Assembly: GCF_002335445.1 (NCBI RefSeq)
Contig: NZ_BDME01000006.1
Coordinates: 123,528 to 155,527, forward strand
DNA length: 32,000 nucleotides
Direction: 5' to 3'
DNA from: Lebetimonas natsushimae
Lineage (GTDB): Bacteria > Campylobacterota > Campylobacteria > Campylobacterales > Nautiliaceae
Shown: positions 10,753 through 32,000 of the stretch, piece by piece
Layout: the number at the start of each line of letters is the position of its first letter
Numbering within the stretch: position 1 is the stretch's first letter
Translations under genes and position numbers: made by a program
Notes under the pieces: generated by a model
The model's database searches: none
What the model saw: only the letters and a program-made list of their open reading frames with translations
Told to the model about the DNA's origin: nothing

Positions 10753-12162
10753 TCCAAAGTCTTTGTGGATATCTCCAGATATTACTCCAAGATTGAAGTT
10801 TTCTACCAAGAAGTTTACGATATCTTCGTTTGCAAATTGTGGTGCGTTTGGTCCGATATAAATATCTTTTACTCCAAGGCTTAGTAATGCAAGTAAAATA
10901 ATAATTGCTTTTTGTTCCATCCACATTAGAGCAATTGATACCGGTAATTCATTAATATCTTCAATTCCTAAAGCCTGAGCTACTGTCATTGCGATATGAA
11001 CTGCACCGTTAGAGTCGTTACACTGTCCAAGGTCAATATATCTTGGAATGTCAGTTCCAGGTACTGTTCCAAAATCTACATCGTTGAATCTGAATTTTCC
11101 ACAGCTACTTGTAATAATAATATGGTCTTTTGGAACTGCTAAAGCTAATTCTCTATAATAATTTCTTTTTCTTCCAGGTGCGTCACATCCTGCGATAACC
11201 CATACTCTTTTTAATTTTCCTTCTTTTATTGCATCAAGAACTTTTGGTCCGAATGCCTCAAGAACAGTTTTGTAGTGATGTCCTGTTACGATTTTTTCAT
11301 CACTGTCAAACCCGGTGATATCAGGCAAGCTTAAAGTATGGTCAATTAATGGATCAAAATTGTCATTTTCTATTTTTTTGGCACCCTCAACACCTGTAAT
11401 TTTATAAGTGTATAGTCTATCTATATAATTTTTAACTTTTGGTGATTTTTCAGGCGGAACGATACAGTTAGTATTTACAACACAAGTTCCCTGCCATTTG
11501 GAAAATACATCTGTCTGGTCAAACCATGCTTTTCCGATATTTCCTTTTAGGTTTTTGAATTTTCTTAAATGAGGATATCCGTGAGCCGGTAACATTTCTG
11601 AGTGAGTATATACATTTATTTTATCACTAAGACCTCTTTCTTCTATTCTTTTTAATAATTTTTCAAGCATATCAAGATTATGTCCTGATACTAAAATACC
11701 TTTGCCTTCAGCTTTGTTTTGAGTAACTTCTACAGGTGTTGGTATTCCAAGGGCTTTTGTATGCATATCGCTAAGTAAATTCATAACTTTTACTCCGGCT
11801 TGTCCAACTTTCATAAGTTGAGCAATATGTTCATCAAAATTGAAGTTTACGTTTGTAAGAGTGAAATATAATGTTTCACTGTTTACATCATCCACTTCTT
11901 TTAATGTTTTTCTTGCTTCTTCATCTCCAACTTCTTGTACTAATTCATTCGCATGTTCTCTGTATGCGCTAAGACCTTTTAGTCCGTAAATCATTAAATC
12001 CTGAAGTCTTGATTTTGTAGCAGTTTTACCACAAACACCTTTGCTCTCTCCATGGCTACCACATCCACCAGGTGCACTCATTTCACATTGCCAGCATAAA
12101 AACGGTAAATCGCAAGCCTGTTTTTTAGTTGTTTCTTCTTTTTTTCCGAATAGTCCAAACAT
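10735..12162 (-). CDS. hcp: Hybrid-cluster protein / hydroxylamine reductase (short form)
   Basis: 475 aa. It has the N-terminal Cys cluster CWQCEMSAPGGCGSHGESKGVCGK and Hcp-type motifs along its length (VNTNCIVPP, VIAGCDAPG, DLGQCNDS, MWMEQKAIIILLALLSLGV). An AAGGAG RBS is present. Confidence 0.93.
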   Translation of the reverse strand: MFGLFGKKEETTKKQACDLPFLCWQCEMSAPGGCGSHGESKGVCGKTATKSRLQDLMIYGLKGLSAYREHANELVQEVGDEEARKTLKEVDDVNSETLYFTLTNVNFNFDEHIAQLMKVGQAGVKVMNLLSDMHTKALGIPTPVEVTQNKAEGKGILVSGHNLDMLEKLLKRIEERGLSDKINVYTHSEMLPAHGYPHLRKFKNLKGNIGKAWFDQTDVFSKWQGTCVVNTNCIVPPEKSPKVKNYIDRLYTYKITGVEGAKKIENDNFDPLIDHTLSLPDITGFDSDEKIVTGHHYKTVLEAFGPKVLDAIKEGKLKRVWVIAGCDAPGRKRNYYRELALAVPKDHIIITSSCGKFRFNDVDFGTVPGTDIPRYIDLGQCNDSNGAVHIAMTVAQALGIEDINELPVSIALMWMEQKAIIILLALLSLGVKDIYIGPNAPQFANEDIVNFLVENFNLGVISGDIHKDFGKELAS

Positions 12163-12294: not shown

Positions 12295-15200
12295 ATGGAA
12301 GCTATTTATAAAAACAGATGCCCTAACTGTGGAGGGAATATCAGTTCTGAACGTTTGGAAATTGGACTTTTTTGCGAAAAATGTATGGATATCAGTGAAG
12401 ATAAATGTAATGTAAATTTGATAAATTATAAAAAATTCTGCGTTGCAGATGAAAAATTAGAAAAATTTAATTTGTTTTTTAGGGAAAAAGTAGGGCAGGA
12501 CCTTAGCCCGATTCAGAGAATGTGGGCAAAAAGATTTTTTTTAGGGAATTCTTTTGCGCTTTTAGCGCCGACGGGAATAGGTAAAACAACATTTGGTTTG
12601 TTGCTTGCAGCATTTGCAAAAAAAAGTTATATTGTTTTCCCAACAAAACTTCTGGTATTACAGGCTCTTGAAAGATTTAAAAGCTGGGGTGTTGAAGTAC
12701 TTGCATACACTGGTAAAAAAGAGGAAAAAGAAAAAATTGAAAAAGGTGAATATGATATTTTAATAACAACCACCCAGTTTTTATATAAAAATCATGAAAT
12801 AATAAATAAAGATTTTGATCTGGTTTTTATAGATGATGTGGATTCTATTTTAAAATCTGCCAGAAAAATTGATATCGTTTTAAAACTTTTAGGAATAAAT
12901 GAAAAAATAATAAATACTGCATTAGAACTTATAGAGAAAAAAGATTATGTTAATTTAATGGAATTAAAAATTGTAAAAAAAGGTAATTTAATAGTATCTT
13001 CTGCTACTGCAAATCCAAAAAGTAAAAGGGTGCTTTTATTTAAATATCTGCTGGGATTTGAAGTTAGCAGGCCAAATTTATCTCTTAGAAATATAGAAGA
13101 TGTCTATGATGAAACATATTCATACGAAAAAGCCATGAAATATATCAAAAAATTAGGAAGCGGCGGGCTTTTGTTTTTGCCTGGGAATGAAACCAAAGAT
13201 AAACTAAATGAATTTATAGAATTTTTAAACACTGCTGGAATTAAGACATATTCTTATGAAGAATTCAACGAGCATGTCGAAGAATTTAAAAGGGGTGAAT
13301 GTGTTTTTGCCGGTTTTGCAAGTTACAGAAATCCTCTTGCGAGGGGAATAGATTTGCCTGAGAGTGTAAGATATACGCTTTTTGTCGGGGTGCCGAAGAT
13401 TGAATTTAAATTAAATGAAGAAAACTATAAAGCGCTTTATTTTATTTGCTTAGTTATTTATCCACTTTTAATAAAAAAACTAGAAACTAAAGAGATTTTA
13501 ACTTTTCAAAATTACATTAATACATTAAAAAGATATGCTTTTTTGCCAGTGCTTCATCCAAAAGTGGAAGAAAAATTAAAAATGATAAAAGAATATGTAA
13601 CTAACTTAATAGAAACATACAGAATAGAGATAAAAAATTCTCCGGAAGTCAGTTTTGACGGGGAAAAAATAATAACGGCGGATATTACAGGTTATATTCA
13701 GGCAAGCGGCAGAAGCAGCAGGTTTTATAACGGACATCTTACAAAAGGTTTGGCTCTAACACTTATAGATAATGAAAAAGCCTTTTTTTCTCTTAGAAAA
13801 AAACTTAACTGGTATAGCAACATTGAATTTAAAAATATAAAAGAGATAAATTTAGACGAAATTTTAAAAGAAATTGATGAGAGTAGAAAAATAAAAACAA
13901 AAACAAATCTCAAAACTTCATTTGTGGTAGTTGAATCCCCTACAAAAGCAAAAACCATTTCTTCATTTTTTGGTAGACCCAGCAGAAGAATAGTTGATGG
14001 AGTCAGTATTTATGAGATATTACTCAAAGACAGGGTTTTGGTAATCACTGCTAGCATCGGACATGATTTTGATCTCTCTTATGAGGAAAAATGGGGTGTT
14101 AAGGATAAGTATATTCCAATTTTTAGAGTCTTAGAAAATAAAGATAAAATATTAAATGCCTTAAATCTTGCTTCTTATGAGGTTGATGAAGTTATTATTG
14201 CAACAGACCCGGACAGGGAAGGGGAAAAAATTGCATTTGATTTGATACTCAATAACAAGCCGTATAATTTAAATGTAAAAAGAGCAGAATTTCACGAAAT
14301 TACAAAATATGCATTTACTAAGGCACTTAATAATTTGAGATATTATGATAAAAATTTGGTTGCTGCTCAGTTTGTCAGAAGAATAAGTGACAGGTGGATA
14401 GGGTTTAATTTGTCATCTTATCTTCAAAATCTGCTTCATAATGCCCATCTTTCAGCCGGAAGGGTTCAGACCCCTGTGTTAAACTGGATTTGTGAAAGGA
14501 CAGAAAAATTAAAAGAGAAAATTTTTATTGTATCTGTTAAAATAAATGATTTAAAAATTGAGTGGGAATTTGAAGATAAAGAGAAAGCAGAAGGATTTTT
14601 CAATTCATTAAAAAATAAAATCGAGATTAAACTGCTTGAATCAAAAGAAGAAGATGTTTTTGAAAAACCTTTTAACACCTCTACTCTTTTGAAAGAAGCG
14701 GCAACTAAACTTCATTTTTCTCCCCAATATACAATGAAACTGGCCCAGGAACTTTTTGAAAACGGATTTATTACATATCACAGGACTGACAGTTTTAGAA
14801 TCTCAAACGTGGGTAAAAAAATTGCAAAAGAGTATATTGAGGAGAAGTTTGGAGAAGAGTATGTAAATTTGAGAAGTTTTGAAAGCGGCGGGGCACATGA
14901 GGCGATTAGGGCTACTACTTCGATGGATATGAATGAACTTAAAAGTTTTTTAGTTTTTAAAAATATAAATCTAACTTACAATCATTTAAAATTATATGAT
15001 TTGATTTTTAGAAAATTTATAGCTTCTCAGATGAGAGATGTGAAAGTTAAAAAAGATATTTTTAAAATAGTTGATAAAGAAGTTGATGTAAATACCAAGA
15101 TTTTGGAAGACGGATTTAATCTTGTTTATCCCATAAAAATTTATAATATTAAAGAAGGAATTTATCCTGTTAGTAAAAATATTTATCAAAAAAGTAAATT

Positions 15201-15507
15201 TCCTCCATATACTTATGCTGAGGTTATCGATGAAATGAAAAACAAAGGGATCGGAAGACCGTCAACTTATGCAATAACTGTAGAAAAACTGCTTGAGAGA
15301 AAATATGTGGTTGAAAAAAACGGATTTTTATTTGCAACAAAACTTGGATTTAAAGTTTTAGATATTCTAAAAAAACATCCTTTATATAAATTTGTAAGTG
15401 AAATATTTACTAAAACTCTTGAAGAAACTATGGATTTAATAGAAGAGGGTAAAAAAGATTATAAGTCGGAATTGATTAAATTGTATAATAATTTATTTAT
15501 TGGTTAA
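12295..15507 (+). CDS. rgy: Reverse gyrase (helicase-like domain fused to a type IA topoisomerase)
   Basis: 1070 aa. It begins with a zinc finger (CPNCGG ... CEKC). Helicase motifs follow: APTGIGKTT (Walker A), FIDDVD (motif II), SSATANP (motif III) and QASGRSSR (motif VI). The topoisomerase IA part has Toprim VVVESPTKAKTI, ATDPDREGEKIA and the catalytic-Tyr motif ITYHRTDS. Confidence 0.95.
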   Translation: MEAIYKNRCPNCGGNISSERLEIGLFCEKCMDISEDKCNVNLINYKKFCVADEKLEKFNLFFREKVGQDLSPIQRMWAKRFFLGNSFALLAPTGIGKTTFGLLLAAFAKKSYIVFPTKLLVLQALERFKSWGVEVLAYTGKKEEKEKIEKGEYDILITTTQFLYKNHEIINKDFDLVFIDDVDSILKSARKIDIVLKLLGINEKIINTALELIEKKDYVNLMELKIVKKGNLIVSSATANPKSKRVLLFKYLLGFEVSRPNLSLRNIEDVYDETYSYEKAMKYIKKLGSGGLLFLPGNETKDKLNEFIEFLNTAGIKTYSYEEFNEHVEEFKRGECVFAGFASYRNPLARGIDLPESVRYTLFVGVPKIEFKLNEENYKALYFICLVIYPLLIKKLETKEILTFQNYINTLKRYAFLPVLHPKVEEKLKMIKEYVTNLIETYRIEIKNSPEVSFDGEKIITADITGYIQASGRSSRFYNGHLTKGLALTLIDNEKAFFSLRKKLNWYSNIEFKNIKEINLDEILKEIDESRKIKTKTNLKTSFVVVESPTKAKTISSFFGRPSRRIVDGVSIYEILLKDRVLVITASIGHDFDLSYEEKWGVKDKYIPIFRVLENKDKILNALNLASYEVDEVIIATDPDREGEKIAFDLILNNKPYNLNVKRAEFHEITKYAFTKALNNLRYYDKNLVAAQFVRRISDRWIGFNLSSYLQNLLHNAHLSAGRVQTPVLNWICERTEKLKEKIFIVSVKINDLKIEWEFEDKEKAEGFFNSLKNKIEIKLLESKEEDVFEKPFNTSTLLKEAATKLHFSPQYTMKLAQELFENGFITYHRTDSFRISNVGKKIAKEYIEEKFGEEYVNLRSFESGGAHEAIRATTSMDMNELKSFLVFKNINLTYNHLKLYDLIFRKFIASQMRDVKVKKDIFKIVDKEVDVNTKILEDGFNLVYPIKIYNIKEGIYPVSKNIYQKSKFPPYTYAEVIDEMKNKGIGRPSTYAITVEKLLERKYVVEKNGFLFATKLGFKVLDILKKHPLYKFVSEIFTKTLEETMDLIEEGKKDYKSELIKLYNNLFIG

Positions 15508-22480: not shown

Positions 22481-25400
22481 ATGAATAATCATAAAGGAGC
22501 AGGAGTGGAAGGTGTAATTTTTTTATTTTTACTTATAATTTTCTCACTCAAGGTGTTTGCTTTAATAAACAAAGAAAACGTAAAAAGCTCGTTTATTATC
22601 GCAAGTGGTGCGGAAATTTTGTATCTGGGTGTGGCGCTTCTTGGCAGCAGTGCATTAAGCGCTGTAATTTTACACCTTGAATATCAGTTTGTATTTAGGG
22701 TTTTGGCTTTTTTGATGCTTTTTGAATTTTTTAAGTTTAAAAATTCTGTTAAACTCAGTGATTTGGCCGGAGTTGGATTTAACAAATGGGGTGTGATTTT
22801 CGGATTTTCAATATTTGGAAGTCTTGGAATTTCATTAATTACCTCAAAACAGCTTATATTAAATTCCATTACAGCTTCAGGAATGTTTGAGCTTGGATAT
22901 TTGATTGTGGCAATTAATATTGTTCAGGCAATTTATTTAATTTCTATTTTTGAAACAATTGTTTTCAAAAAAGGAGAAAGTTTAAAAAATATTTCTAATA
23001 AAATACTTATATCTGTTTTTACATTTGCAGGTATATTGGTCTTTTTACTTCCGCAGATTTATTTAATATTACCTGCAAAATTTAGTAATATCAATGCTTA
23101 TCATATAAGTTTTGATTTTAATTATCACGGTATAAACGGTGTTTTTGCATTACTTTTTGCTTTTATAATGTCAATGGTTTTTATTTATTCACTAGATTAT
23201 ATTAAAAAATATAAGGCTTTTTATTATTCTTTTTTGGCTATTTTAACACTTGCTTTAATTGAAATACCATTAAGCAGCAGTTTTGAGAGTTTTTATCTTT
23301 TCTGGGAGACTATGACAATTACTTCATATTTATTGATTATGCATTCAAGAAGTGACGAGTCAATAAAAGCGGCTAAACTTTATTTTGTTATGTGTATTGC
23401 CGGGGCATATTTCTTACAGCTTACATTTTCACATTTTTATTCTTTAGGAATAGAAAGTTTCAGTGAAATAGTAAATGTTTCTTTAACTGTTGCCGTATTA
23501 ATGTTAATAGGTTTTGGTGTAAAAGCGGGTATAGTGCCTATTCATCAATGGCTACCTGTTGCGCATCCTGCAGCACCAAGCAGTATTTCAGCCCCACTTT
23601 CTGGTATTTTAACAAAAGCGGGAATTTTTGGAATTATTGTTTTGGTTTATGTTTTAGGATTTCAAAATAAAATTTTTTCTTATTTATTAGTAACTTTAGG
23701 TTTAATTACACTTTTTTACGGAGAAATTAAAACATTATATGAAAAAGACATAAAAAGACTTTTTGCATATTCAACTATAGGGCAAATTGGTGAAATTGTC
23801 ACCGTTTTAGGCCTTATGAGCACTGCGGCATTAAGCGGTGCAATCTATCATGTAATTAACCATGCGGTTGTTAAAGATTTATTGTTTTTAAGTGCGGGCT
23901 TACTGATATTAAGTAGTGGAAGCAGAAATCTTGATGATTTGAAAGGAATAGGAAAAAAACTGCCGTTTTTAGCTTTCCCGTTGGGTGTTGGTGTTTTTGC
24001 TTTAAGTGCATTTCCTCCGTTTGGAAATTTTAATTCAAAATTTTTAATGATATACGCAGCTGCTGAGCAGAATAATTATATTGTTGCATTTTCCCTAATA
24101 ATTGCTGGACTTATAGGTTTTGTAGCGATGCTGAGAGTGTTTAGGTATATTTTTTTAATGAATCCACAAAGGGAATTTTCAGAAGTTAAAGGAATAAAAG
24201 TAATAGCTGTATATCTTTTAGCTTTTGTTTCATTACTGCTTGGTATTTTTCCTCAGAGCGTTATTGATTTTATTGCAGCAGCTATAAATTCTACGTTAAA
24301 AGTTAATGTTCATTTGCCTCATTTTATATTACAGTTTCCGTTAAGTGTTTTAGTTATGATAATAGGGGCAATAATTGTTTACCTGTTTGGAAAAACAAGT
24401 AAAACAGCCGGAATCAGTGCTGCTGGATTTTCATTTTTAGCTCTTTTAACAGTATTTGCTGATAAATTCAGTTTTGGCAGCTTTTTTGCAGGTTTGGTTT
24501 TATTTATGGCAATTCTAAATTTCCTTTTTGCCGCAAGATATATGGACCATTCCCATAAATCATACAGATTTTTTGCCAATTTTATGATAATGATTGTCGG
24601 AATTTTGGGTGTGGCTTTGAGTGAAAATATTTATTCAATGTTTTTTTACTGGGAAATAATGGGCGGATGGGCGTTATATATCGCTCTTGTGCATGAAGAA
24701 GATGCATACTCAATTCAGGAAGCTACAAAATATCTGTTATACAATTATGCTGGTGCCGGTGTAATAATGATAGGTTTAGGTATTGTAATGCAATTTGGAA
24801 ATAGTATTGAAATAATAAAACATATTCCTCTTACAAATGAAATAATCTTTGCTTTGGTTTTATTAACTGTTGGTTTCTTAGCAAAAGCGGCCCAGCTTCC
24901 TGTAAGAATTGATTATCAGATGCACCCAAAACCGGCTCCAACTCCTATAAGTGGGTATATCTCTTCTGTTATGCTAAAAACAGGACCTTTTATGTTTGTA
25001 ATGGTTATGTATTTGGCTGCTGCTGGTGTAAGTGCATCTAAATTGTTTGTGATAGATAGTATAGGACATTTTGCAGCTATTGTTGGTGTAATTACTATTC
25101 TTATGGGTGCGAGTTTCGGACTATTAACTAATTCCATGAAAAGACTTTTAATTTTCTTAACAGTGGGTGAAATAGGTTATATTTTTGCCGGCGTTTCTTT
25201 AATGACGTCCCAGGGGTTAGCAGGTGGGCTTTTGCATTTAATAAACCATATGTTTTTTAAAGATTTGCTATTTTTAAGTGCTGGGGCCATTTTTTATAAA
25301 ACCGGAATAGATTCATTAAATGATCTCGGGGGAATTGCTAGAAAAATGCCAGTTACTTTTGCCGTATTTATGATAGCTGTTTTTTCAACAGCAGGTGTTC

Positions 25401-25987
25401 CAATGTTTAGCGGTTTTGTCTCTAAATGGATAATCTATCATGCATTGATGTCAAAAGGATATGACTTTTTAGCTATCCTAACCATTCTCGGAAGTGTTAT
25501 GATTTTACTTGTATTTGTAAAATTTATGCACAGTGCATATTTTGGAAAAATAGACAAAAAATTTGAAAATATCAAAGATGTTGATTGGTATATGTCTTTA
25601 CCTATGATGATTTTGGCAATTTTAAACATTATTTTAGGAATATTCCCTTATTTTGCTTTAAAACCGATAAACTTAATAATTCAAAGTTTTGGATATAAAC
25701 AAATATGTATTTCATTAAGTTCAGTTTGTATTGGTGGTGATATTCTTAATTTATTCACACTTTCAATTTATACATTGTTGGCTATTGCAATAGGTTATTT
25801 AATGTTTGTTTATAACAGAAAAATCAGAAAAACGCATATTTTCCTTTCAGGTGTTAGGGATTTAAGTGAAAGGGAACTTCATATAAATGCCAAAAATTTT
25901 TATGAAAGCGTTACAGAACTTATAAAGACAATTATTTATTTTGTAAAAAAAATATTTGGATTGAAAGGAGGCTATGTTGAGCGCTAA
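22481..25987 (+). CDS. Group 4 hydrogenase membrane subunit with two fused NuoL/M/N-type antiporter-like modules (CooM/HyfB-like)
   Basis: 1168 aa, polytopic. Module 1: LFWETMT ... GVKAGIVPIHQWLPVAHPAAPSSISAPLSGILTKAG ... HVINHAVVKDLLFLSAG. Module 2: FYWEIMG ... LAKAAQLPVRIDYQMHPKPAPTPISGYISSVMLKTG ... HLINHMFFKDLLFLSAG. An alternative start, GTG 22505, lies 5 nt after AAGGAG (22494-22499) and may be the true start. Confidence 0.88.
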   Translation: MNNHKGAGVEGVIFLFLLIIFSLKVFALINKENVKSSFIIASGAEILYLGVALLGSSALSAVILHLEYQFVFRVLAFLMLFEFFKFKNSVKLSDLAGVGFNKWGVIFGFSIFGSLGISLITSKQLILNSITASGMFELGYLIVAINIVQAIYLISIFETIVFKKGESLKNISNKILISVFTFAGILVFLLPQIYLILPAKFSNINAYHISFDFNYHGINGVFALLFAFIMSMVFIYSLDYIKKYKAFYYSFLAILTLALIEIPLSSSFESFYLFWETMTITSYLLIMHSRSDESIKAAKLYFVMCIAGAYFLQLTFSHFYSLGIESFSEIVNVSLTVAVLMLIGFGVKAGIVPIHQWLPVAHPAAPSSISAPLSGILTKAGIFGIIVLVYVLGFQNKIFSYLLVTLGLITLFYGEIKTLYEKDIKRLFAYSTIGQIGEIVTVLGLMSTAALSGAIYHVINHAVVKDLLFLSAGLLILSSGSRNLDDLKGIGKKLPFLAFPLGVGVFALSAFPPFGNFNSKFLMIYAAAEQNNYIVAFSLIIAGLIGFVAMLRVFRYIFLMNPQREFSEVKGIKVIAVYLLAFVSLLLGIFPQSVIDFIAAAINSTLKVNVHLPHFILQFPLSVLVMIIGAIIVYLFGKTSKTAGISAAGFSFLALLTVFADKFSFGSFFAGLVLFMAILNFLFAARYMDHSHKSYRFFANFMIMIVGILGVALSENIYSMFFYWEIMGGWALYIALVHEEDAYSIQEATKYLLYNYAGAGVIMIGLGIVMQFGNSIEIIKHIPLTNEIIFALVLLTVGFLAKAAQLPVRIDYQMHPKPAPTPISGYISSVMLKTGPFMFVMVMYLAAAGVSASKLFVIDSIGHFAAIVGVITILMGASFGLLTNSMKRLLIFLTVGEIGYIFAGVSLMTSQGLAGGLLHLINHMFFKDLLFLSAGAIFYKTGIDSLNDLGGIARKMPVTFAVFMIAVFSTAGVPMFSGFVSKWIIYHALMSKGYDFLAILTILGSVMILLVFVKFMHSAYFGKIDKKFENIKDVDWYMSLPMMILAILNIILGIFPYFALKPINLIIQSFGYKQICISLSSVCIGGDILNLFTLSIYTLLAIAIGYLMFVYNRKIRKTHIFLSGVRDLSERELHINAKNFYESVTELIKTIIYFVKKIFGLKGGYVER

Positions 25988-26936
25988 TATTATTCATTTT
26001 TTAATTTTTCCTGGCGGATTATTTGCATTGTGTCTTGGTGTTTTTATGCTTTCCCTTGAAAGAATTGTGGTTGCTAGACTTCAGGGAAGGGTAGGACCTC
26101 CCATTTATCAAAATTTTATTGACGTAATTAAACTTTTCAATAAGGAAATTTTAGTTCCTAAAAATGCAAAAGAGGCTGTTTTTATTTATTCGCCTTTAAT
26201 AGGTTTTGCCGGAATGCTCGCAATGCTTTATTTTATACCAATTCCCGGTGTGTATGAAGGAACAAATGTAAACAGTGATTTAATAGTGTTAATCTATGTT
26301 ATGGCTTTACCTGCAATAGCTCATATATTGGGGGGAGGTGCATCAAGTTCCCCTTATGCCGCAATTGCAGTAAACAGAGAACTTAAATTAATGCTGGTGT
26401 ACGAAATGGTTTTTGTAATAATCTCTTTTAGCGTTGCGATTTATGTGGGAGGCGGGGATGCTGTGTTTTCATTAAAAAAGATAATGGAATATCAGCAGCT
26501 TCACGGAAGTTTTTTATTTGATTGGAAATTTTGGCCTGCAGTGATTGCTTTTGTTGTTTTTGTGTTAGCAACTTTGGAGTTGCCTCCTTTTCAAATAGCA
26601 CATCATAATGATGCCGATGTAATGGACGGATTTTTAATAGAACACAGTTCAATCCCTTTGGCTATTTATGAAATGACTGATGCGATGAAAATAATTTTGC
26701 TCAGCATAGTGTTTCAAATATTTTTCTTTCCTATAGCAATTACAGATGATTTAATTATAAATTTGATTTGGTTTATTTTAAAAACAGTGGTTTTTGTTAT
26801 GTTCTTTTCGTTTTTACATGCAATTCTCCCAAGTTTCAGAATTGATCAGGGATTTAAATTTTTGCTTATTGTGCCGACTGCATTGTCCCTTATTACATTA
26901 ATTTTAGTAATTTTGTCTGTAAAAGGATTAATATGA
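25974..26936 (+). CDS. Group 4 hydrogenase membrane subunit, NuoH/HycD/CooK-like
   Basis: 320 aa, polytopic. The N-terminal motif RLQGRVGPP is typical of NuoH/HycD. It overlaps the upstream gene by 14 nt. GGAGG lies just upstream. Confidence 0.88.
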   Translation: MLSANIIHFLIFPGGLFALCLGVFMLSLERIVVARLQGRVGPPIYQNFIDVIKLFNKEILVPKNAKEAVFIYSPLIGFAGMLAMLYFIPIPGVYEGTNVNSDLIVLIYVMALPAIAHILGGGASSSPYAAIAVNRELKLMLVYEMVFVIISFSVAIYVGGGDAVFSLKKIMEYQQLHGSFLFDWKFWPAVIAFVVFVLATLELPPFQIAHHNDADVMDGFLIEHSSIPLAIYEMTDAMKIILLSIVFQIFFFPIAITDDLIINLIWFILKTVVFVMFFSFLHAILPSFRIDQGFKFLLIVPTALSLITLILVILSVKGLI

Positions 26937-27361
26937 GTATTATTACAAGAAGTCCTTTTTTATTCAGGATAAATACAGGAAGCTGCAACGGATGTGATGT
27001 GGAACTTGCCACAACTGCTATGATTCCAAGATATGACGTTGAGAGACTTGGATGCAGATATACAGGAAGTCCTAAACACGCGGATATACTCCTGGTTACC
27101 GGTCCTATTACGGCAAGAAGTAAGCCGTATTTACTCGAAGTATTGGATGAGCTTCCAAATCCTTTTGTGGTGGTGGCAGTGGGAACATGCCCTACAAGCT
27201 GTGGGATTTTCAGGGATTCTTATTCAATAGAGGGACCGCTTGAGAGGTATGTGAAAGTTGATGTTAATGTGCCGGGCTGTCCGCCAAGACCACAGGCGAT
27301 AATTGACGGTGTTGCAAAAGCACTTGAAATCTGGAAAGAAAAAATAAGGAATCAAAAATGA
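26933..27361 (+). CDS. [NiFe]-hydrogenase small subunit, NuoB/HycG/CooL-like
   Basis: 142 aa. The ligands for a single [4Fe-4S] cluster are SCNGCDVE, GTCPTSCG and PGCPPRP. ATGA overlaps occur at both ends. Confidence 0.92.
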   Translation: MSIITRSPFLFRINTGSCNGCDVELATTAMIPRYDVERLGCRYTGSPKHADILLVTGPITARSKPYLLEVLDELPNPFVVVAVGTCPTSCGIFRDSYSIEGPLERYVKVDVNVPGCPPRPQAIIDGVAKALEIWKEKIRNQK

Positions 27362-27861
27362 GCGGATTTTTAAAAATTGCAATAAGGAATTTGTTAAAAG
27401 GACCTGTAACAGACCCTTATCCTTTTGGAAAAACGTTTATACCGAATAAATTAAGAGGAAAACTAAAAGTTGACCCTAAGGCATGCACAGCTTGCGGGAC
27501 ATGTGAGGAAGTATGTCCATCGGGTGCTATACATATTACAAAAAATGAAAATGTTTATGTTCATACCACATGGTATAACACCTGCTGTTTTTGCGGAAAC
27601 TGTGAGTTTTTTTGTCCGACAGGGGCTATAAAGCTTACAAATGATTTCCATACGGCAAATACCGAAGAGGAAAAATACCGTTTTACAACAGTAGCCCTAA
27701 TCAGCGAAATTAAATGTGAAAGTTGCGGAGAAATGTTTGTACCGGCAAGTGAGGCTTTATTAAAAAGGGCTTATCCGAATGTAAATGATACTATCAGAGA
27801 ACTTACAAAATTATGTCCTAAATGCAGGCGAAAAAAAGCGTTTGAAAGGCTTTATCAATGA
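27358..27861 (+). CDS. 2x[4Fe-4S] ferredoxin-like subunit, NuoI/HycF/CooX-like, with an extra C-terminal CxxC...CxxC segment
   Basis: 167 aa. The two cluster motifs are CTACGTCEEVCP and CCFCGNCEFFCP. The C-terminus adds CESCGE ... CPKCRRK. Confidence 0.88.
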   Translation: MSGFLKIAIRNLLKGPVTDPYPFGKTFIPNKLRGKLKVDPKACTACGTCEEVCPSGAIHITKNENVYVHTTWYNTCCFCGNCEFFCPTGAIKLTNDFHTANTEEEKYRFTTVALISEIKCESCGEMFVPASEALLKRAYPNVNDTIRELTKLCPKCRRKKAFERLYQ

Positions 27862-28373
27862 AAGAAACATTAAAACAAAAGATTATTGCTGAATTAAAAA
27901 ACAGAATTACGGGTGATTTTGATTTAAGAGATGAAAAAGATGCAAAAGGTAATATTCAAATCTGGTTGAAACTTTTTAACCGAAAAGACATTTTACATGT
28001 TGCCCAGGTTATTAAAGATTTTGGTGGAAGATGTGTGATTATAAGCGCATATAAAAAAGATGACCATCATGTGCTTGTGTATCATTTGGATATTGACGGA
28101 ATACTTATTAATGTCGAAGTGGAACTTTTTGATAATACAGTTGATTCAATAACACCTATTTTAGACAGTGCCAATTGGACTGAAAGGGAATTTAAAGAGA
28201 TGTTCGGAATAAAACTTGTAGGACATCCAAATCCAAAAAGACTGTTTCTTGATGAAAGTATAGCTGAGGGAATACTTGGGGAGTATATGCCACTTTCACA
28301 AGCTATGAATGGTGCGGCAACATGTTGTATGTGGGAAAAAATTGAAAGTGAAAGGCATAAAAATGAGCACTAA
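27858..28373 (+). CDS. NuoC (30-kDa subunit)-like hydrogenase subunit, CooU-like
   Basis: 171 aa. The NuoC-family motif is WTEREFKEMFGIKLVGHPNPKRLFL. ATGA overlap upstream. Confidence 0.85.
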   Translation: MKETLKQKIIAELKNRITGDFDLRDEKDAKGNIQIWLKLFNRKDILHVAQVIKDFGGRCVIISAYKKDDHHVLVYHLDIDGILINVEVELFDNTVDSITPILDSANWTEREFKEMFGIKLVGHPNPKRLFLDESIAEGILGEYMPLSQAMNGAATCCMWEKIESERHKNEH

Positions 28374-29442
28374 AATACCTATTGGTCCGTTTCATATAGG
28401 ACTTGAAGAACCTATATATTTTAAAATTGATTTAGAAGGTGAAACTGTAAAAAACGTTGATATGATAAACGGTTTTGTACACAGGGGAATCGAGTATCTT
28501 GCAATGCAGAAAAACTTTTTTCAAAATCTGATTTTAACTGAGAGGGTTTGTTCGCTGTGTTCTAACAACCATCCTTTCACATATGTAATGGCTGTAGAAA
28601 AAATAGCCGGTATTGAAGTTAGCAGAAGGGCTAATTACTTAAGGGTTGTGGCTGATGAAGTAAAAAGAATAGCATCACATATGTTTAATTTAAGCATGCT
28701 TGCCCATTTAATTGGTTTTCATTCTTTAATGACCCAGACAATGGAGGCAAGGGAAATTATGCAGGATATTAAAGAATCAATCTGGGGTAACAGAATGGAT
28801 ATGAGTGCCAATACCATAAGCGGTGTTAAGTATGATTTGGATGAAGGTCAGATTGAATATATTTTGAAAAGGCTTGACGAACTTGAACCCCAGGTTGATG
28901 AAATAATTGATATTTATTTTAATCATAAAATTGTAAAAGCAAGAACCGTGGGGGTTGGAGTTTTACCAAAAGAGGACGCTTTACGTCTTGGTGTTACAGG
29001 ACCGACTGCCAGGGGTAGCGGTGTTAATAATGATGTGAGGGTAAAAGCCCCTTATGCCGCCTATGACGAATTAAAAGTAAATGTTATCTTAGAAGAAGGC
29101 GGTGATGTGCATGCGAGAACAAAGGTTAGATGGAGAGAGGTAAAAGAGTCAATAAGACTTGTAAGAGAGGCAATTACAAATCTGCCAGAAGGTCCTGTTG
29201 TGCTTGATAAAAGACCACATATTCCGGCAGGTGAAGCCGTTACCAGGTCTGAAGCCCCAAGAGGGGAGCTTATTTATTATCTTAAAACCAACGGTGCTCA
29301 AAAACCGGAGAGAATGAGATGGAGGGTTCCGACATATATGAACTGGGAAGCACTGAGGGTTATGATTCCAGGCAATAAATTAAGTGATGTTGCGGTTATT
29401 TTCAACAGTATTGACCCTTGTATTTCATGTACAGAAAGATAA
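28363..29442 (+). CDS. Group 4 [NiFe]-hydrogenase large subunit (NuoD/CooH/EchE-like)
   Basis: 359 aa from ATG 28363 (MSTKIPIGPFH...). Both Ni-Fe ligand motifs are present: RVCSLCSNNH and the C-terminal DPCISCTER, where the protein ends. The ORF-track start at 28309 lies inside the preceding gene. Confidence 0.93.
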   Translation: MSTKIPIGPFHIGLEEPIYFKIDLEGETVKNVDMINGFVHRGIEYLAMQKNFFQNLILTERVCSLCSNNHPFTYVMAVEKIAGIEVSRRANYLRVVADEVKRIASHMFNLSMLAHLIGFHSLMTQTMEAREIMQDIKESIWGNRMDMSANTISGVKYDLDEGQIEYILKRLDELEPQVDEIIDIYFNHKIVKARTVGVGVLPKEDALRLGVTGPTARGSGVNNDVRVKAPYAAYDELKVNVILEEGGDVHARTKVRWREVKESIRLVREAITNLPEGPVVLDKRPHIPAGEAVTRSEAPRGELIYYLKTNGAQKPERMRWRVPTYMNWEALRVMIPGNKLSDVAVIFNSIDPCISCTER

Positions 29443-29456
29443 ATAAAGGAGAATTA

Positions 29457-29978
29457 ATGGCTAATAAGTTTATTTTTGCAGATCCAAAAAAATGTATAGG
29501 TTGTTTAAACTGTGAGCTTGCTTGTGCAGCAAAACATATGAATATTTCTTTTGAAGAAGCATATGATTTGGCACTGAATGGAGAAGTTGAATTAATTCAT
29601 AGAAATACCGTTATTGAAATGAACGGATTAACCGCTCCAATGCAATGTATGCAGTGTGAAGATGCACCGTGTGTTGAAGCGTGTCCTATTGACATTATCA
29701 GATATGAAAACAATTATGTAAAAATTTATGAAAGTGATTGTATTGGTTGTAGAAGCTGTGCGATGGTCTGTCCTTTCGGTGCAATAACAATGGCTAAAAG
29801 TAATTCCACAAATGTAACAGGATTAGTTGCAATAAAATGTGATTTGTGCGGGGGAGAAGAAGGGAAACAGGCCTGTGTAAATATCTGTCCTACAGATGCG
29901 ATTGAACTTATAGATTATAATGAATATAAAAGAAGAAAACAAGAAAATGCTTTTGAAAGATTACATCAAGATGCATGA
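29457..29978 (+). CDS. Polyferredoxin electron-transfer subunit, CooF/HycB/HydN family (four [4Fe-4S] motifs)
   Basis: 173 aa from ATG 29457, which has an AAGGAG RBS. The cluster motifs are CIGCLNCELAC, CMQCEDAPCVEACP, CIGCRSCAMVCP and CDLCGG...ACVNICP. Confidence 0.88.
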   Translation: MANKFIFADPKKCIGCLNCELACAAKHMNISFEEAYDLALNGEVELIHRNTVIEMNGLTAPMQCMQCEDAPCVEACPIDIIRYENNYVKIYESDCIGCRSCAMVCPFGAITMAKSNSTNVTGLVAIKCDLCGGEEGKQACVNICPTDAIELIDYNEYKRRKQENAFERLHQDA

Positions 29979-30306
29979 ACTCTCAATCGTTCAGTCTATG
30001 ATGAAAATTATTGAAAAACATGCAAAAAACAGAGAAGTTGAAAGACTTGTGGTAAAAATAGGAAAAATGAGCGGAATAGAACCGTATTTTTTAAAAGAGA
30101 GTTTTGATTTTTTTAAAGAAGGCACTGTTTGTGCAAATGCCGAAATGGAAATAATAGAAGTTAATATAAAAATAAAATGTTTTGAGTGCGGAAGTGAGAG
30201 TGAAATAAAAGGTTTTGATTTCCACTGTCCCGTGTGTGGAAGTGAAAAAACAAAGATAATAAGCGGAGAAGAAATGCATATAGAATATATTGAATTAAAG
30301 GAGTAG
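29971..30306 (+). CDS. hypA: Hydrogenase nickel-insertion protein HypA
   Basis: 111 aa from ATG 29971. It has the N-terminal Ni-binding MHE motif (MHELSIVQ) and the zinc site CFECGSE ... CPVCGSE. It overlaps the preceding gene by 8 nt. Confidence 0.9.
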   Translation: MHELSIVQSMMKIIEKHAKNREVERLVVKIGKMSGIEPYFLKESFDFFKEGTVCANAEMEIIEVNIKIKCFECGSESEIKGFDFHCPVCGSEKTKIISGEEMHIEYIELKE

Positions 30307-30308
30307 TA

Positions 30309-31730
30309 ATGAAAAAACATTTTACAAGGGTTCCTAAAAAGATTCAGAGAAAAAGAGATGCAAATGAGAGAATAAATGATTTTGAACCTGTGTATATTGA
30401 ATTTAATGAAGAAGAGGCAGCAGAACAGGCTAAAAGATGTTTAACATGCCCTATTGATATTTTAAGAGGGCTTAACAGCGAGTTTGAATTTTGCAGAACC
30501 GGATGTCCTCTAAACAATTATATTCCACAGTGGATCAGGGAAGTAAGACGCGGAAATTTAGAAAAGGCGTTTGAGCTTAGCAATGAAAAATCACCTTTTC
30601 CAGAAATTATGGGAAGAGTTTGTCCGCATGACAGTCTGTGTCAGGGAAGCTGCGTTCTTTCTAAAACAGACCACGGAAGCGTCGCTATCGGAGCTATTGA
30701 GGTTTTTATAAGCGAAGAAGGGTTTAAAAGAGGATATAAACCTTATTACGGGGAGGATAAAAAAAGAAAAAAAAGAGTTGCTGTAATTGGAAGCGGACCT
30801 GCGGGAATGAGCTGTGCCACTTTTCTTTTAAGAGGTGGAGTAAATGTGGAAATGTTTGAAAAATCCGACAGACCCGGGGGACTTTTAACATACGGTATTC
30901 CAAATTTTAAACTTCACAAAGATGTTGTTTTTAGAAGATTCAAGTGGATGCAGGATGCCGGACTTAAACTGCATTTAAATACACCAATTTTAACCGAAAA
31001 AGATTTTGATAAAATTGTTAATGATTTTGATGCCGTGTTTATAGGTGTTGGTGCTCCAAGCAGCAGGGGCGCAAGAATGGAAAATGAAAATGCAAACGGA
31101 GTTTATCATGTTATGGATATTTTAACCCATGCCCAAAAAAGAGTGTTTAAAGATTTTGATGATTGTATATTAAAAGACAAAAGGGTAGTTGTAATCGGCG
31201 GTGGTGACAGTGCAATGGATGCGGTAAGAACAAGTGTAAGAAGCGGTGCAAAAGAGGTATACTGTGTTTACAGAAGAGATGAATCCAATATGCCTGGAAG
31301 TAAAAAAGAAGTTATAAATGCTAAAGAAGAAGGGGTTAAATTCAGATTTTATACAGCACCAAAAGCTGTAAAAATTGATGAAAACAATAATGTTGTAGGG
31401 ATAATCTGCCAAAAAACAGAATTAGGTCAGCCTGATGAAAGTGGGAGAAGAAGGGTTCAAATTGTTGAAAATAGTAATTTTGAAATTCCTTGTGATATAA
31501 TTATATTAGCGTTAGGCTTTGATACTGTTAAATTTCCTTGGTATGAGCATGCAGGAATTGAAACTGATAAATGGGGATGTCCTGTTGTAAATGAAAGATA
31601 TCAGACAACTAATAAAAAAGTTTTTGCAGGTGGAGATGCGATTAGAGGCGCAGATTTGGTTGTAACTGCTGCAAGAGACGGAAGAGAAGCAGCATACGGT
31701 ATATTAGAATATTTAGGATTAAAGGATTGA
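30309..31730 (+). CDS. GltD-like NAD(P)H-dependent iron-sulfur flavoprotein oxidoreductase (glutamate synthase small-chain family)
   Basis: 473 aa. The N-terminal Fe-S Cys motifs are [11 protein letters not shown]...CRTGCPL and [15 protein letters not shown]. The FAD and NAD(P)H Rossmann motifs are [14 protein letters not shown] and [20 protein letters not shown] lies 5 nt upstream. No gltB (large chain) gene is adjacent. Confidence 0.88.
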
Positions 31731-31731
31731 T

Positions 31732-32000
31732 ATGATACCGATTTATAAAAGCGATGTGGTTATAGTAGGGGCTGGGCTTGCTGGACTTGCGGCTGCAAGA
31801 GAACTTAGCAGGGCCGGTAAAAATGTGACGGTTCTTACAAAACTACATCCGTTGCGCTCTCATTCAGGGGCCGCACAGGGTGGAATAAACGCAGCTTTGG
31901 CTGATGATGACGATGTAGAACTCCATATGTTTGATACTGTAAAAGGAAGCGATTATTTGGCAGACCAGGATGCGGTTGAGCTTATGTGCTCACGTGCACC
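31732..32000 (+). CDS. Fumarate reductase / succinate dehydrogenase flavoprotein subunit, N-terminal fragment (3'-truncated by the window edge)
   Basis: [22 protein letters not shown] is the FAD Rossmann motif. [18 protein letters not shown] contains the His used for covalent FAD in FrdA/Sdh[23 protein letters not shown] is also conserved. There is no Tat or signal sequence. It starts 1 nt after the GltD-like stop. Confidence 0.9.

Follow-up and report, generated by a model that had tools for sequence, protein, structure and literature searches.

A Coo-type [NiFe] hydrogenase locus of Lebetimonas natsushimae with a candidate NADPH-binding partner and an adjoining fumarate reductase

The 'coo' hydrogenase-fdr locus of Nautilia profundicola (GAmH_1032-1021) was drawn in 2009, and its role was called enigmatic (Campbell et al., 2009; PMC2628731). 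In the same study, the GltD-like gene of the locus was placed under glutamate synthase, as the only GOGAT small subunit of N. profundicola, an organism stated to be without other routes to NAD(P)H (PMC2628731). For the 'Hyd-3' hydrogenase of Nautilia sp. PV-1, NADPH production via a co-expressed NADPH-binding subunit was later proposed (Smedile et al., 2022; PMC10092268), and CooH, CooU, CooX, CooL, FrdA and FrdB were detected in the PV-1 proteome. Neither study analyzed how the link between hydrogenase and GltD is distributed over lineages. A related soluble hydrogenase is encoded by Sulfurospirillum multivorans, where hardly any transcript of the large subunit was seen in any of the conditions tried and H2:NAD+ activity was absent from crude extracts, NADP+ not being reported there (PMC5357620).

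Here, we analyzed a 32,000-nucleotide stretch of the deep-sea-vent bacterium Lebetimonas natsushimae (NZ_BDME01000006.1; hereafter, the window), which ends inside frdA. Compared with the N. profundicola locus and with Hyd-3 of PV-1 (survey locus L093), the window belongs to an orthologous 12-gene string with the same junction geometry, and reverse gyrase lies nearby in both (cf. the Figure S2 legend of Campbell et al.; PMC2628731). The window comes from a different genus, Lebetimonas, and its locus is a new member of a kind already described from genomes, with a predicted role. An initial annotation of this DNA rightly noted that no characterized complex of such composition is known, but both the locus (PMC2628731) and the NADPH hypothesis (PMC10092268) had already been published.

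The hydrogenase genes lie on the forward strand, as do the genes that continue the string to the window end, in the order M-K-L-X-U-H over 22481-29442 by Pfam and NCBIfam, which equals the cooMKLXUH naming of the N. profundicola orthologues. The CooM-like membrane subunit (22481..25987, 1168 aa; PF00361 in two stretches, E 9e-90) consists of two fused Mrp/NuoL-type antiporter-like modules, with the NCBIfam matches to NuoM/L, HyfB/D and MrpA/D split between its halves. It is followed by a CooK/NuoH-like membrane subunit (25974..26936, 320 aa; PF00146, E 1.6e-55), a CooL/NuoB-like small subunit (26933..27361, 142 aa; PF01058, E 6.5e-28) whose cysteine motifs CNGC and GCPP are conserved in all relatives, a CooX/NuoI/HycF-like subunit with two [4Fe-4S] clusters (27358..27861, 167 aa; Fer4 families and the formate hydrogenlyase Fe-S model NF009053, E 5e-28) and a CooU/NuoC-like subunit (27858..28373, 171 aa; PF00329, E 2e-20). 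The large subunit (28363..29442, 359 aa; PF00346 and PF00374), whose likeness to CooH we take from earlier work (PMC2628731; PMC5357620), contains RVCSLCSNNH and a C-terminal DPCISCTER, and so both cysteine pairs, and has no C-terminal extension. Its closest solved chains are the alpha subunit of Pyrococcus furiosus Mbh (6cfw_L, E 2e-79) and Escherichia coli HycE (7z0s_E, E 1e-68). The cysteine pairs that ligate Ni-Fe are kept in 37 of 37 related large subunits; in all hydrogenase variants at these 37 loci, which span several genera, Ni-Fe and Fe-S ligands and reading frames are intact. With NuoB-, NuoI-, NuoC- and NuoH-like subunits and antiporter-like subunits in one operon, the enzyme is of the group 4, energy-converting type.

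Behind the large subunit lies a gene for a CooF/HydN/HycB-like electron-transfer protein with four [4Fe-4S] clusters (29457..29978, 173 aa, 16 Cys). It matches residues 2-158 at the N-terminus of AegA (E 2.7e-36) and HydN (E 3.7e-31), its closest solved chains are HycB3 and HycB4 of HDCR and HycB of formate hydrogenlyase (FHL), and all of its relatives have 16-17 cysteines. The next gene encodes the nickel metallochaperone HypA (29971..30306, 111 aa; PF01155, E 1.2e-31; TIGR00100, 88.2 bits against a cut-off of 88.1). An alternative upstream ATG at 29920 appears in the list of open reading frames; the Pfam HypA domain covers residues 1-108 counted from the ATG at 29971. CooS was found neither in the window nor in the 37 related clusters. 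The only prismane-family gene of the window encodes a hydroxylamine reductase/Hcp (TIGR01703, 492 bits), which reaches 58 bits with the CooS model, whose cut-off is 478.

The GltD-like Fe-S/FAD/NADPH oxidoreductase (30309..31730, 473 aa; PF14691 and PF07992) scores 507.6 bits with TIGR01318 (cut-off 483) and matches residues 193-654 at the C-terminus of AegA (E 1e-149). It aligns end to end with the small chain of NADPH-dependent glutamate synthase (6s6s_G) and with NfnB (4ylf_B), and is as similar to NfnB (4ylf_B, 5jca_L) as to GltD. Relative to 6s6s_G, two [4Fe-4S] cluster cysteine motifs, a 14-residue stretch and YRRD..NMPGS are conserved; the NADPH-type motif YRRD..MPGS is common to the GltD-like protein, the NADPH-dependent GltD of Azospirillum brasilense and NfnB of Thermotoga maritima. 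Between Cys47 and Cys62, in the first cluster motif, the window protein carries a clade-specific insertion within a 14-residue stretch. Such a private insertion of 10-12 residues is present at 50 of 50 clade loci, is missing at all 36 of the other loci whose sequence includes the N-terminus, and is absent from every gltB-linked GltD examined. The hydrogenase-linked proteins form a clade of their own (neighbor-joining bootstrap 100/100); the closest relative of the window protein is from Lebetimonas (90% identical). The sister clade (bootstrap 100) is gltB-linked GltD, which has the gltB adjacency (survey loci L008, L094 and L095), whereas none of the 50 clade loci does. In one Hydrogenimonas assembly, GCA_053991455.1, the hydrogenase-linked paralogue co-exists with a gltB-gltD pair. 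The protein falls outside the gltB-linked lineage of true glutamate synthase GltD: the cofactor motifs and the FAD and NADPH Rossmann folds fit, but the gene stands apart from gltB, in a separate clade and with the insertion.

The genes follow one another closely. From the large-subunit stop (TAA, 29440-29442) to the CooF-like ATG at 29457 there is a gap of 14 nt containing AAAGGAG, and the CooF-like stop (TGA, 29976-29978) and the hypA ATG at 29971 (MHELSI...) give an overlap of 8 nt. The hypA stop (TAG, 30304-30306) precedes the GltD-like ATG at 30309, with AAGGAG at 30298-30303, and the GltD-like stop (TGA, 31728-31730) precedes the frdA ATG at 31732. All four junctions, as well as the AAGGAG within the hypA 3' end, had been given by the initial annotation and proved exact on re-reading. 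It had also argued that there is no room for a terminator; in agreement, no terminator-like hairpin was found on the forward strand over 26583-32000, which includes the stretch from the large-subunit gene to the window end. A promoter scan returned 42 sites against 42.5 expected. As Lebetimonas, Caminibacter pacificus, C. mediatlanticus and Nautilia sp. PV-1 have the same tight junctions, we regard the arrangement as conserved and not due to chance. Judging from this junction geometry, the hydrogenase, gltD-like and frd genes are most likely co-transcribed.

Relatives show what follows past the window end. There, the string runs on from FrdA to FrdB and an HdrB/SdhE-like CCG protein, giving a 12-gene unit, and at one survey locus (L001) a terminator-like hairpin sits exactly at the stop of the CCG gene. 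The 12-gene string is present in Lebetimonas, C. pacificus, Nautilia PV-1 and Nautiliaceae metagenome-assembled genomes (MAGs), and C. mediatlanticus keeps the string, Frd included, without the membrane (pump) genes. The spacing of 1-3 nt between gltD and frdA is kept across four Nautiliaceae genera, in Lebetimonas, Caminibacter and Nautilia as well as in MAGs. The initial annotation had singled out the downstream genes and the recurrence of the string as informative; both are borne out, by frdB and the HdrB-like CCG gene after frdA and by the relatives just named. On balance, it is probable that a 12-gene transcription unit begins in the window, which covers ten of its genes, and that this unit joins two modules found apart in other lineages.

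We surveyed 95 loci. As many of them are near-identical metagenome copies, the counts overstate the number of independent observations. Among the 40 clade loci whose upstream sequence extends over 2.7 kb or more, 37 have the large subunit, CooF and HypA genes directly upstream of the GltD-like gene, against 0 of 19 non-clade GltD loci. Membrane genes are present at 14 of 29 clade loci; about half of the hydrogenase clusters are without them, yet keep CooF-HypA-GltD. FrdABE stands downstream of the GltD-like gene at 13 of 44 clade loci, all of them Nautiliaceae-like, and is missing after it at the other 31, which include three membrane-type loci and two that are Nautiliaceae-like (L016 and L017). 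The large subunit-CooF-HypA-GltD string occurs with no Frd nearby in Hydrogenimonas sp., Sulfurovum sp. ST-21 and Sulfurospirillum-type loci, and no survey locus combines the GltD-like gene and Frd without a hydrogenase. Thus, the GltD-like gene travels with the hydrogenase and not with the fumarate reductase.

The window contains the first 89 codons of frdA (31732..32000; TIGR01812, E 1.7e-34). The translation includes an FAD-binding GAGLAG from residue 13 and a 10-residue stretch, carries the RSHS histidine motif and has no twin-arginine (RR) leader or signal peptide, as the initial annotation had described it (an FrdA-type flavoprotein with the histidine for covalent FAD and no Tat signal). 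As it lacks a Tat leader, FrdA is predicted to be cytoplasmic. At survey loci L001-L004 and L093, the orthologue is present in full length (568 aa), and after it come FrdB (322 aa), which matches the long-form models PRK12577/12576, and the CCG protein (287 aa). This third subunit has two CCG domains (PF02754) and scores 230 bits with the HdrB model and 214 bits with the SdhE model at L001. Scores with the equivalog models of methylmenaquinol:fumarate reductase (MFR) stay under their cut-offs (509 against 1100 for the flavoprotein, 163 against 600 and 214 against 500). In Nitrosophilus labii and Nitratiruptor, FrdA-FrdB-CCG forms a stand-alone operon with its own upstream region and no GltD; the subunits have the same sizes and FrdA is 77% and 75% identical, respectively. 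FrdB and the CCG protein have the lengths and domains seen in these stand-alone operons, with no extra docking domain.

With moderate confidence, we propose a model in which a Coo-type [NiFe] hydrogenase has CooF and the GltD-like protein in place of CO dehydrogenase and may act as an H2:NADP(H) oxidoreductase, with FrdABE co-transcribed but autonomous. The first module would comprise the cooMKLXUH-like, cooF-like, hypA and gltD-like genes, that is, a group 4 [NiFe] hydrogenase in which an NADPH-binding flavoprotein replaces the CODH partner. Electrons would pass from H2 at the Ni-Fe site to the small-subunit cluster, the two CooX clusters and the four CooF-like clusters, and on through two GltD-like clusters and FAD to NADP+, or in reverse. 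That the CooF-like and GltD-like proteins act together is suggested by AegA/YgfT, where they are fused as N- and C-terminal halves, and the insertion next to the first cluster motif may mark an interface for a dedicated partner. The data above show which genes are present, how they join and are conserved, which paralogue is involved and which cofactor motifs it has; the physical assembly of this module, its NADP specificity, its direction and its ion coupling we infer. Since the NuoH-like and double antiporter-like membrane subunits are kept, ion translocation is probably coupled to the H2:NADP(H) reaction in this organism; at high H2 this could conserve energy, whereas at low H2 the gradient could be spent on NADPH formation. 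The relatives without membrane genes, about half, should be plain soluble H2:NADP(H) oxidoreductases. The second module, frdA-frdB-CCG, would encode a fumarate reductase for the reductive TCA cycle, type-E-like, cytoplasmic and without a Tat signal, which is autonomous in sister lineages. As frd in Nautiliaceae lies directly behind the gltD-like gene and is most likely co-transcribed, we suppose joint regulation of reductant supply and of one step in CO2 fixation, Frd not being a hydrogenase subunit.

Gene adjacency is compatible alike with a bound GltD-like subunit and with a separate ferredoxin:NADP+ oxidoreductase. The hydrogenase could be an ordinary ferredoxin-coupled Ech-like enzyme, next to which the CooF-like and GltD-like proteins form a soluble FNOR/Nfn-like oxidoreductase, sharing an operon without docking. 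Ferredoxin coupling was assumed for group 4 enzymes by Campbell et al. (PMC2628731), the GltD-like protein is equally near NfnB and GltD, and a common operon is no proof of assembly. We consider this rather unlikely, because about half of the loci keep the string although their membrane module is gone, so that a gradient can no longer drive ferredoxin reduction there, and because the insertion hints at a dedicated partner. In FHL, HDCR and CODH-hydrogenase complexes, HycB/CooF-type proteins are bound wires joining catalytic modules, and it is to these that the CooF-like protein is closest. A glutamate synthase role, with gltB elsewhere and the operon position incidental, has in its favor the GltD cofactor motifs and the assignment of N. 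profundicola NADPH-glutamate synthase to GAmH_1535/GAmH_1024, the latter being this gltD-like gene (PMC2628731). As the chief role of the Nautiliaceae protein it is very improbable given the lack of a neighboring gltB, the co-existing Hydrogenimonas paralogues and the insertion; still, as the annotated sole GOGAT small subunit of N. profundicola, the protein may have other or additional partners. Least credible of all is a decaying remnant of a CODH-linked Coo hydrogenase with no present function, as raised for S. multivorans. CooS is indeed missing, Hcp being the sole prismane-family product in the window, and echE (large-subunit) transcripts are negligible in S. multivorans, but the ligands and frames are conserved throughout, and the proteomes of Nautilia PV-1, S. 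cavolei and S. multivorans contain hydrogenase subunits.

Two further explanations tie the fumarate reductase more closely to its neighbors. The GltD-like protein, perhaps with the CooF-like one, might, as one of its subunits, feed electrons from NAD(P)H into a soluble FrdA-FrdB-CCG enzyme, the hydrogenase being merely co-expressed. The conserved gltD-frdA junction would fit such a functional tie, FrdB and an HdrB-like CCG protein do follow, and the subunit set of the Hydrogenobacter thermophilus fumarate reductase reportedly resembles GltD-like plus FrdA-FrdB-CCG. The initial annotation had put such a Hydrogenobacter-type enzyme forward, but as a primary role we find it unlikely: closely similar FrdABE stands without GltD in Nitrosophilus and Nitratiruptor, most GltD-like loci lack Frd, two Nautiliaceae-like ones among them, and no survey locus has GltD-like plus Frd without the hydrogenase. 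Alternatively, all twelve products might form one membrane supercomplex, in which H2 electrons leave the CooF-like wire both for NADP+ (GltD-like) and for fumarate (FrdB/CCG) with ion pumping by the antiporter-like module; fumarate reduction in the reductive TCA cycle of Nautiliaceae would then be quinone-independent and energy-conserving. Within Nautiliaceae the operon is conserved and has no interruption, H2 to fumarate offers a large driving force (about 0.44 V by standard potentials) and proteins of both modules occur together in the PV-1 proteome. It is nonetheless quite improbable, as the modules are found apart in other lineages, FrdB and CCG lack a docking domain and C. mediatlanticus keeps Frd after losing the pump genes. 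Of the other proposal in the initial annotation, which has CooF as the wire between hydrogenase and GltD-like protein, the H2:NAD(P)+ part gains good support from comparative genomics (the string without Frd, the clade, the insertion and the AegA halves), whereas the H2:fumarate part finds no specific support.

The hydrogenase-GltD-like module that we favor has several partial counterparts. The soluble 'Ech-like/CooH-like' hydrogenase of S. multivorans (SMUL_1304-1310; Kruse et al., 2017, 2018; PMC5357620, PMC6242987) shares CooL-X-U-H, CooF, (HypA) and GltD-like with the window, and its HD-domain and NYN/LabA neighbors match a survey group of 51-53% identity; however, the two membrane genes and an adjoining fumarate reductase are absent, and its GltD-like protein shares only about 52% identity with that of the window. 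The CO-induced Coo hydrogenases of Rhodospirillum rubrum and Carboxydothermus hydrogenoformans (HydDB group 4c) are alike in the M-K-L-X-U-H order, the CooF-type tetra-cluster protein and hypA, but the window has a GltD-like NADPH flavoprotein in the place of CooS. Their gene order is taken in part from the literature (PMC2628731; PMC5357620). In E. coli formate hydrogenlyase (HycB-FdhH on HycEFG) and HDCR (HycB3/B4), we find the nearest solved relatives of the CooF-like protein, and the large subunit is near HycE. The logic is the same, in that a polyferredoxin connects a group 4 hydrogenase to a soluble catalytic partner, except that the partner would be an NADPH oxidoreductase here and is a formate dehydrogenase there.

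E. coli AegA/YgfT, annotated for formate-dependent urate use, unites the counterparts of the CooF-like (AegA 2-158) and GltD-like (AegA 193-654) proteins in one polypeptide; in the window, each has its own gene, and hypA separates the two within a hydrogenase operon, and the match is far below the equivalog cut-off of 1003 bits. In the [FeFe] group A2 'glutamate synthase-linked' hydrogenases (HydDB; PMC5037454), a GltD-like gene directly follows the catalytic subunit and serves as a subtype classifier, but these belong to another class ([FeFe], not [NiFe] group 4) and have no membrane module. On the fumarate reductase side, the soluble NADH-dependent enzyme of H. thermophilus also combines cytoplasmic FrdA/FrdB of the reductive TCA cycle with extra non-membrane subunits. 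That enzyme has five subunits, and its genes are said to require close homologues of subunits C, D and E (PMC13147460); FrdABE of the present kind, in contrast, occurs without the GltD-like protein in sister genera, so that a GltD-like NAD(P)H-input subunit is not obligate for it. Finally, type E succinate:quinone oxidoreductases and Campylobacter MfrABE (SdhA-SdhB-SdhE) share FrdA, a long FrdB and an HdrB/SdhE-like third subunit with two CCG domains in place of haem-b anchors, but differ from the Frd described here in that MFR is periplasmic, whereas this FrdA, with no Tat leader and with scores below the MFR equivalog cut-offs, is predicted to work in the cytoplasm.

The hydrogenase genes of the window run directly into a GltD-like flavoprotein gene and then into frdA, with the junctions that the initial annotation had described. 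Reading the sequence directly, we find the large-subunit stop at 29442 and the ATG of the CooF-like gene at 29457, separated by a 14-nt gap that holds AAAGGAG. The CooF-like stop at 29978 lies beyond the hypA ATG at 29971, an 8-nt overlap; hypA stops at 30306, with AAGGAG at 30298-30303, ahead of the GltD-like ATG at 30309; and the GltD-like stop at 31730 is followed by the FrdA ATG at 31732. A mechanical ORF list holds an alternative upstream hypA start at 29920, but as the Pfam HypA model spans residues 1-108 of the protein begun at 29971, we assign the start to 29971. The claim that no terminator interrupts the string likewise stands, with zero terminator-like hairpins on the coding strand from 26583 to the window end. 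A scan for the sigma-70 promoter consensus found 42 sites against 42.5 expected from shuffles, no enrichment in this AT-rich DNA, and is thus uninformative on internal promoters.

By Pfam and NCBIfam profile matches, the string begins with a 1168-aa CooM-like protein with two antiporter-like domains, followed by a NuoH-like protein, a NuoB-like small subunit, a NuoI/HycF-like di-cluster protein and a NuoC-like protein. Next come the 359-aa [NiFe] large subunit, with RVCSLCSNNH and a C-terminal DPCISCTER; a HydN/HycB/CooF-type protein (29457 to 29978) with sixteen cysteines and four cluster motifs; HypA (29971 to 30306); the GltD-family Fe-S flavoprotein (30309 to 31730); and, from 31732, the first 89 residues of an SdhA/FrdA flavoprotein with an RSHS histidine motif and no Tat leader. 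Among solved structures, the large subunit is closest to P. furiosus Mbh and E. coli HycE, the CooF-like protein to the connector subunits of the HycB type in HDCR and FHL, and the GltD-like protein to NfnB and the small chain of NADPH-dependent glutamate synthase. AegA, a fused protein of E. coli, is matched by the CooF-like protein over its N-terminal half (2-158) and by the GltD-like protein over its C-terminal half (193-654). The large subunit and all related ones terminate at DPCxSCxxR (window 29434-29442); with no C-terminal extension, no cleavage by a maturation endopeptidase is expected. The sole maturation gene within the operon is hypA.

The GltD-like protein is 90% identical to a Lebetimonas protein, placing the source close to Lebetimonas. 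Genes past the window end were read from close relatives: in Caminibacter pacificus, C. mediatlanticus, Nautilia sp. PV-1 and two assemblies of Lebetimonas, the string goes on as FrdA (568 aa), FrdB (322 aa) and a CCG-domain protein (285-287 aa), with profile matches to SdhA/FrdA, long-form SdhB/FrdB and HdrB/SdhE-like proteins, respectively. In C. mediatlanticus both membrane genes are gone and all else is retained. At one related locus (L001), the CCG gene stop coincides exactly with a hairpin that has a GC stem and a trailing T-run, and the next gene is convergent; the 5' neighbour of the first hydrogenase gene varies by genome (fxsA, dnaK or a divergent chemoreceptor gene). Thus, the predicted transcription unit is twelve genes, from the CooM-like gene through CCG.

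In a neighbour-joining tree, GltD-like sequences linked to the hydrogenase or to hypA form a single clade (100/100 bootstraps), whose sister is the clade of gltB-linked 460-aa GltDs of Campylobacterota (bootstrap also 100). In the former, the first cluster motif carries a clade-specific insertion of 10-12 residues that separates its second cysteine from its third, giving the signature C-x2-C-P-[IV]-D-...-C-[RK]-x-G-C-P; in the window it occupies residues 48-61 and reads [14 protein letters not shown]. All 50/50 clade loci have the insertion, and it was found in no gltB-linked or other GltD homologue examined. It is diagnostic of the hydrogenase-linked GltD-like protein, which is new here, and gives annotators a simple marker. 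The cluster cysteines, both dinucleotide folds and a YRRD..MPGS segment are conserved, the last being common to the GltD-like protein, the NADPH-dependent A. brasilense GltD and T. maritima NfnB; from similarity to these two, we predict NADPH specificity.

Two further observations concern the paralogue's surroundings. On a Sulfurospirillum arcachonense-like contig (L033, 1-13767; same in L032), it follows hypD-hypE-hypA, and just 3' of it lie a formate dehydrogenase gene in two parts (140 + 559 aa), interrupted by an in-frame stop that probably encodes selenocysteine, and a hydrogenase of the Hyf type, placing the paralogue beside an FHL-like rather than a Coo-type cluster. An inositol-monophosphatase-family gene lies 3' of the true gltD in Hydrogenimonas (L094 7387-8112) and two genes past the hydrogenase-linked GltD-like gene in another locus (L017 8672-10698); this shared neighbour is perhaps a relic of the duplication from which the paralogue arose, though coincidence would also account for it.

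We next asked which partner the GltD-like gene keeps to. A single-protein scan of genome contigs gave only two Nautiliaceae MAGs; breadth came from 80 metagenome loci gathered by a search with an alignment of the GltD-like clade, and every locus was scored with tblastn, using GltB and the twelve proteins as queries. The figures count loci, several of them near-duplicates, rather than independent events. Genes for the large subunit, CooF and HypA lie immediately 5' of GltD-like in 37 of the 40 clade-signature loci with at least 2.7 kb upstream, against 0/19 for other GltD homologues. Among the three exceptions, L032/L033 and L045 still adjoin hyp or hydrogenase genes, and L053 does not. Membrane genes are present in 14 and absent from 15 of the 29 clusters with enough upstream DNA. 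FrdA lies 3' of GltD-like in 13/44 loci, every one Nautiliaceae-type, and three membrane-type loci (L006, L016, L017) are without it; in L017, GltD-like is directly followed by an aldehyde-dehydrogenase-family gene that in C. pacificus lies past frdABE. A Hydrogenimonas sp. has the full membrane-type cluster with CooF, HypA and GltD-like and no fumarate reductase after it, and Sulfurovum sp. ST-21 keeps CooF-HypA-GltD-like with the membrane genes absent. The breadth of the hydrogenase-GltD link, well past Nautilia, and its independence of both pump genes and fumarate reductase are new here. As the membrane module is often lost, gene content shows the redox reaction itself to be the putative conserved function.

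The membrane-less group-4-type [NiFe] hydrogenases, about half of related clusters (L004 6781-9139; L007 6681-9141; L021-L031, L037-L047, L050, L079), have all Ni-Fe and Fe-S ligands intact. Sulfurovum sp. ST-21 has a 293-aa fusion of the NuoB-like small subunit with the NuoI-like di-cluster protein. Directly 5' of the small-subunit gene, eight Sulfurovum-type soluble clusters share a conserved ORF of 94 aa that lacks any Pfam match (L007 6400-6684; also L022, L023, L025-L028, L050); it may encode an additional subunit or be a remnant. A TetR-family gene adjoins the cluster in five non-Nautiliaceae loci (L006 1048-1647, minus strand; L007 11828-12412; L023, L026, L028), and its product is a candidate regulator of the operon. 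Seven Nautiliaceae-type loci have a thioredoxin-reductase-like (Pyr_redox_2) gene of 331-333 aa a few kb to either side (L003 15012-16007 and L004 15397-16392, both minus strand; L009, L010, L013, L014, L016).

The fumarate reductase module has a separate existence. FrdA orthologues with 75-77% identity in Nitrosophilus labii and a Nitratiruptor MAG head three-gene frdA-frdB-CCG operons preceded by ~130 nt of intergenic DNA, with no GltD-like gene or hydrogenase within 10 kb. Subunit lengths and domains are identical to those of the Nautiliaceae versions, so no extra docking element is visible in the latter. The frdA adjacency is best seen as lineage-specific placement of a cassette behind the operon in Nautiliaceae, which would co-regulate reductant supply with one step of the reductive TCA cycle.

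Group 4 hydrogenases plug in a soluble catalytic partner via a HycB/CooF-type polyferredoxin, as formate hydrogenlyase does with FdhH and the CO-dependent enzyme with CooS. Here, the partner would be the GltD-like NADPH flavoprotein in place of CO dehydrogenase, and the complex would interconvert H2 and NADP(H). This modular model is the best supported; how the parts assemble, which direction the reaction takes, which nucleotide it prefers and whether it is coupled to ions are all inferences. From E0' values of -414 and -320 mV, H2 + NADP+ has a standard free energy of about -18 kJ/mol, which at high H2 would cover roughly one ion, and the reaction would reverse at low H2 and the high NADPH/NADP+ ratios expected in vivo. 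The membrane module could therefore either conserve energy or drive NADPH formation.

The distribution data speak against each of five rivals as the primary explanation. The initial annotation had offered two readings: that GltD-like and FrdA form a Hydrogenobacter-like NAD(P)H fumarate reductase, and that the CooF-like protein wires the hydrogenase to the GltD-like protein. The second gains support, since the hydrogenase-GltD string is kept without frd; the first loses it, since frdABE stands alone elsewhere. The contiguity of all these genes in Nautiliaceae could also be read as a single H2:fumarate supercomplex, but this too is disfavoured as primary by the loci that have one module only. 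That the GltD-like protein is the only GOGAT small subunit in Nautiliaceae has an annotation in its favour, GAmH_1024 of N. profundicola having been entered as glutamate synthase small subunit (PMC2628731), and the question of a second gltD in that family turns solely on this entry. However, Hydrogenimonas GCA_053991455.1 encodes a gltB-gltD pair and the hydrogenase-linked paralogue on separate contigs, so its glutamate synthase does not need the paralogue. The other two rivals are a separate ferredoxin:NADP+ oxidoreductase and a cluster that is a non-functional remnant; the distribution makes both less likely as primary explanations.

Flavin-based bifurcation at the GltD-like FAD, from NADPH to fumarate and protons, was also considered and rejected: it would make no physiological sense for a reductive-cycle H2 oxidiser, and no NfnA-like partner is encoded. 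The window's prismane-family gene (10735-12162, minus strand; TIGR01703, 492 bits) is no hidden CooS; it encodes a hybrid-cluster protein/hydroxylamine reductase. It aligns only from profile position 125, lacking the usual N-terminal region, for which there is no space ahead of the next gene. The window also holds a reverse gyrase gene (12295-15507, plus strand; TIGR01054, 1063 bits), unusual in a bacterium and already known for Nautilia profundicola.

Any strictly H2-dependent autotroph at a vent needs a source of NADPH, and Nautiliaceae are not known to have an established one. If correct, the modular model would provide a direct, possibly ion-coupled H2:NADP+ link. It would also bring to four the plug-in partners of group 4 hydrogenases, the other three being formate dehydrogenase, CO dehydrogenase and ferredoxin. 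To our knowledge, the enzyme of this gene cluster has never been characterised; the soluble, pump-less versions should be easier for biochemists to purify.

Clusters of this kind have been described before in three genera, with an NADPH link already hypothesised, and the present locus adds one more member. The N. profundicola orthologues were named cooMKLXUHF (GAmH_1032-1026) by Campbell et al. (2009; PMC2628731), who noted the absence of CooS, termed the hydrogenase's role enigmatic and invoked reverse electron transport for NADPH supply. For Nautilia sp. PV-1, Smedile et al. (2022; PMC10092268) proposed that 'Hyd-3' generates NADPH by way of a co-expressed NADPH-binding subunit, and their proteome table includes CooH/U/X/L and the adjacent FrdA/FrdB. 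The membrane-less version is the soluble CooH-like hydrogenase of Sulfurospirillum multivorans, whose missing membrane genes were remarked upon and whose adjoining GltD-like oxidoreductase, SMUL_1304, appears in the tables (Kruse et al., 2017/2018; PMC5357620, PMC6242987); our group of loci with 51-53% identity corresponds to this locus, as the HD-domain and NYN/LabA neighbours match. The Figure S2 legend of Campbell et al. draws the coo and fdr operons adjacent, with reverse gyrase (PMC2628731), and the window likewise has reverse gyrase near coo-fdr, its copy lying 7 kb upstream of the operon. The GltD-like pairing itself has a precedent in another hydrogenase class, the [FeFe] subgroup A2, which HydDB defines by a downstream GltD-like protein (PMC5037454).
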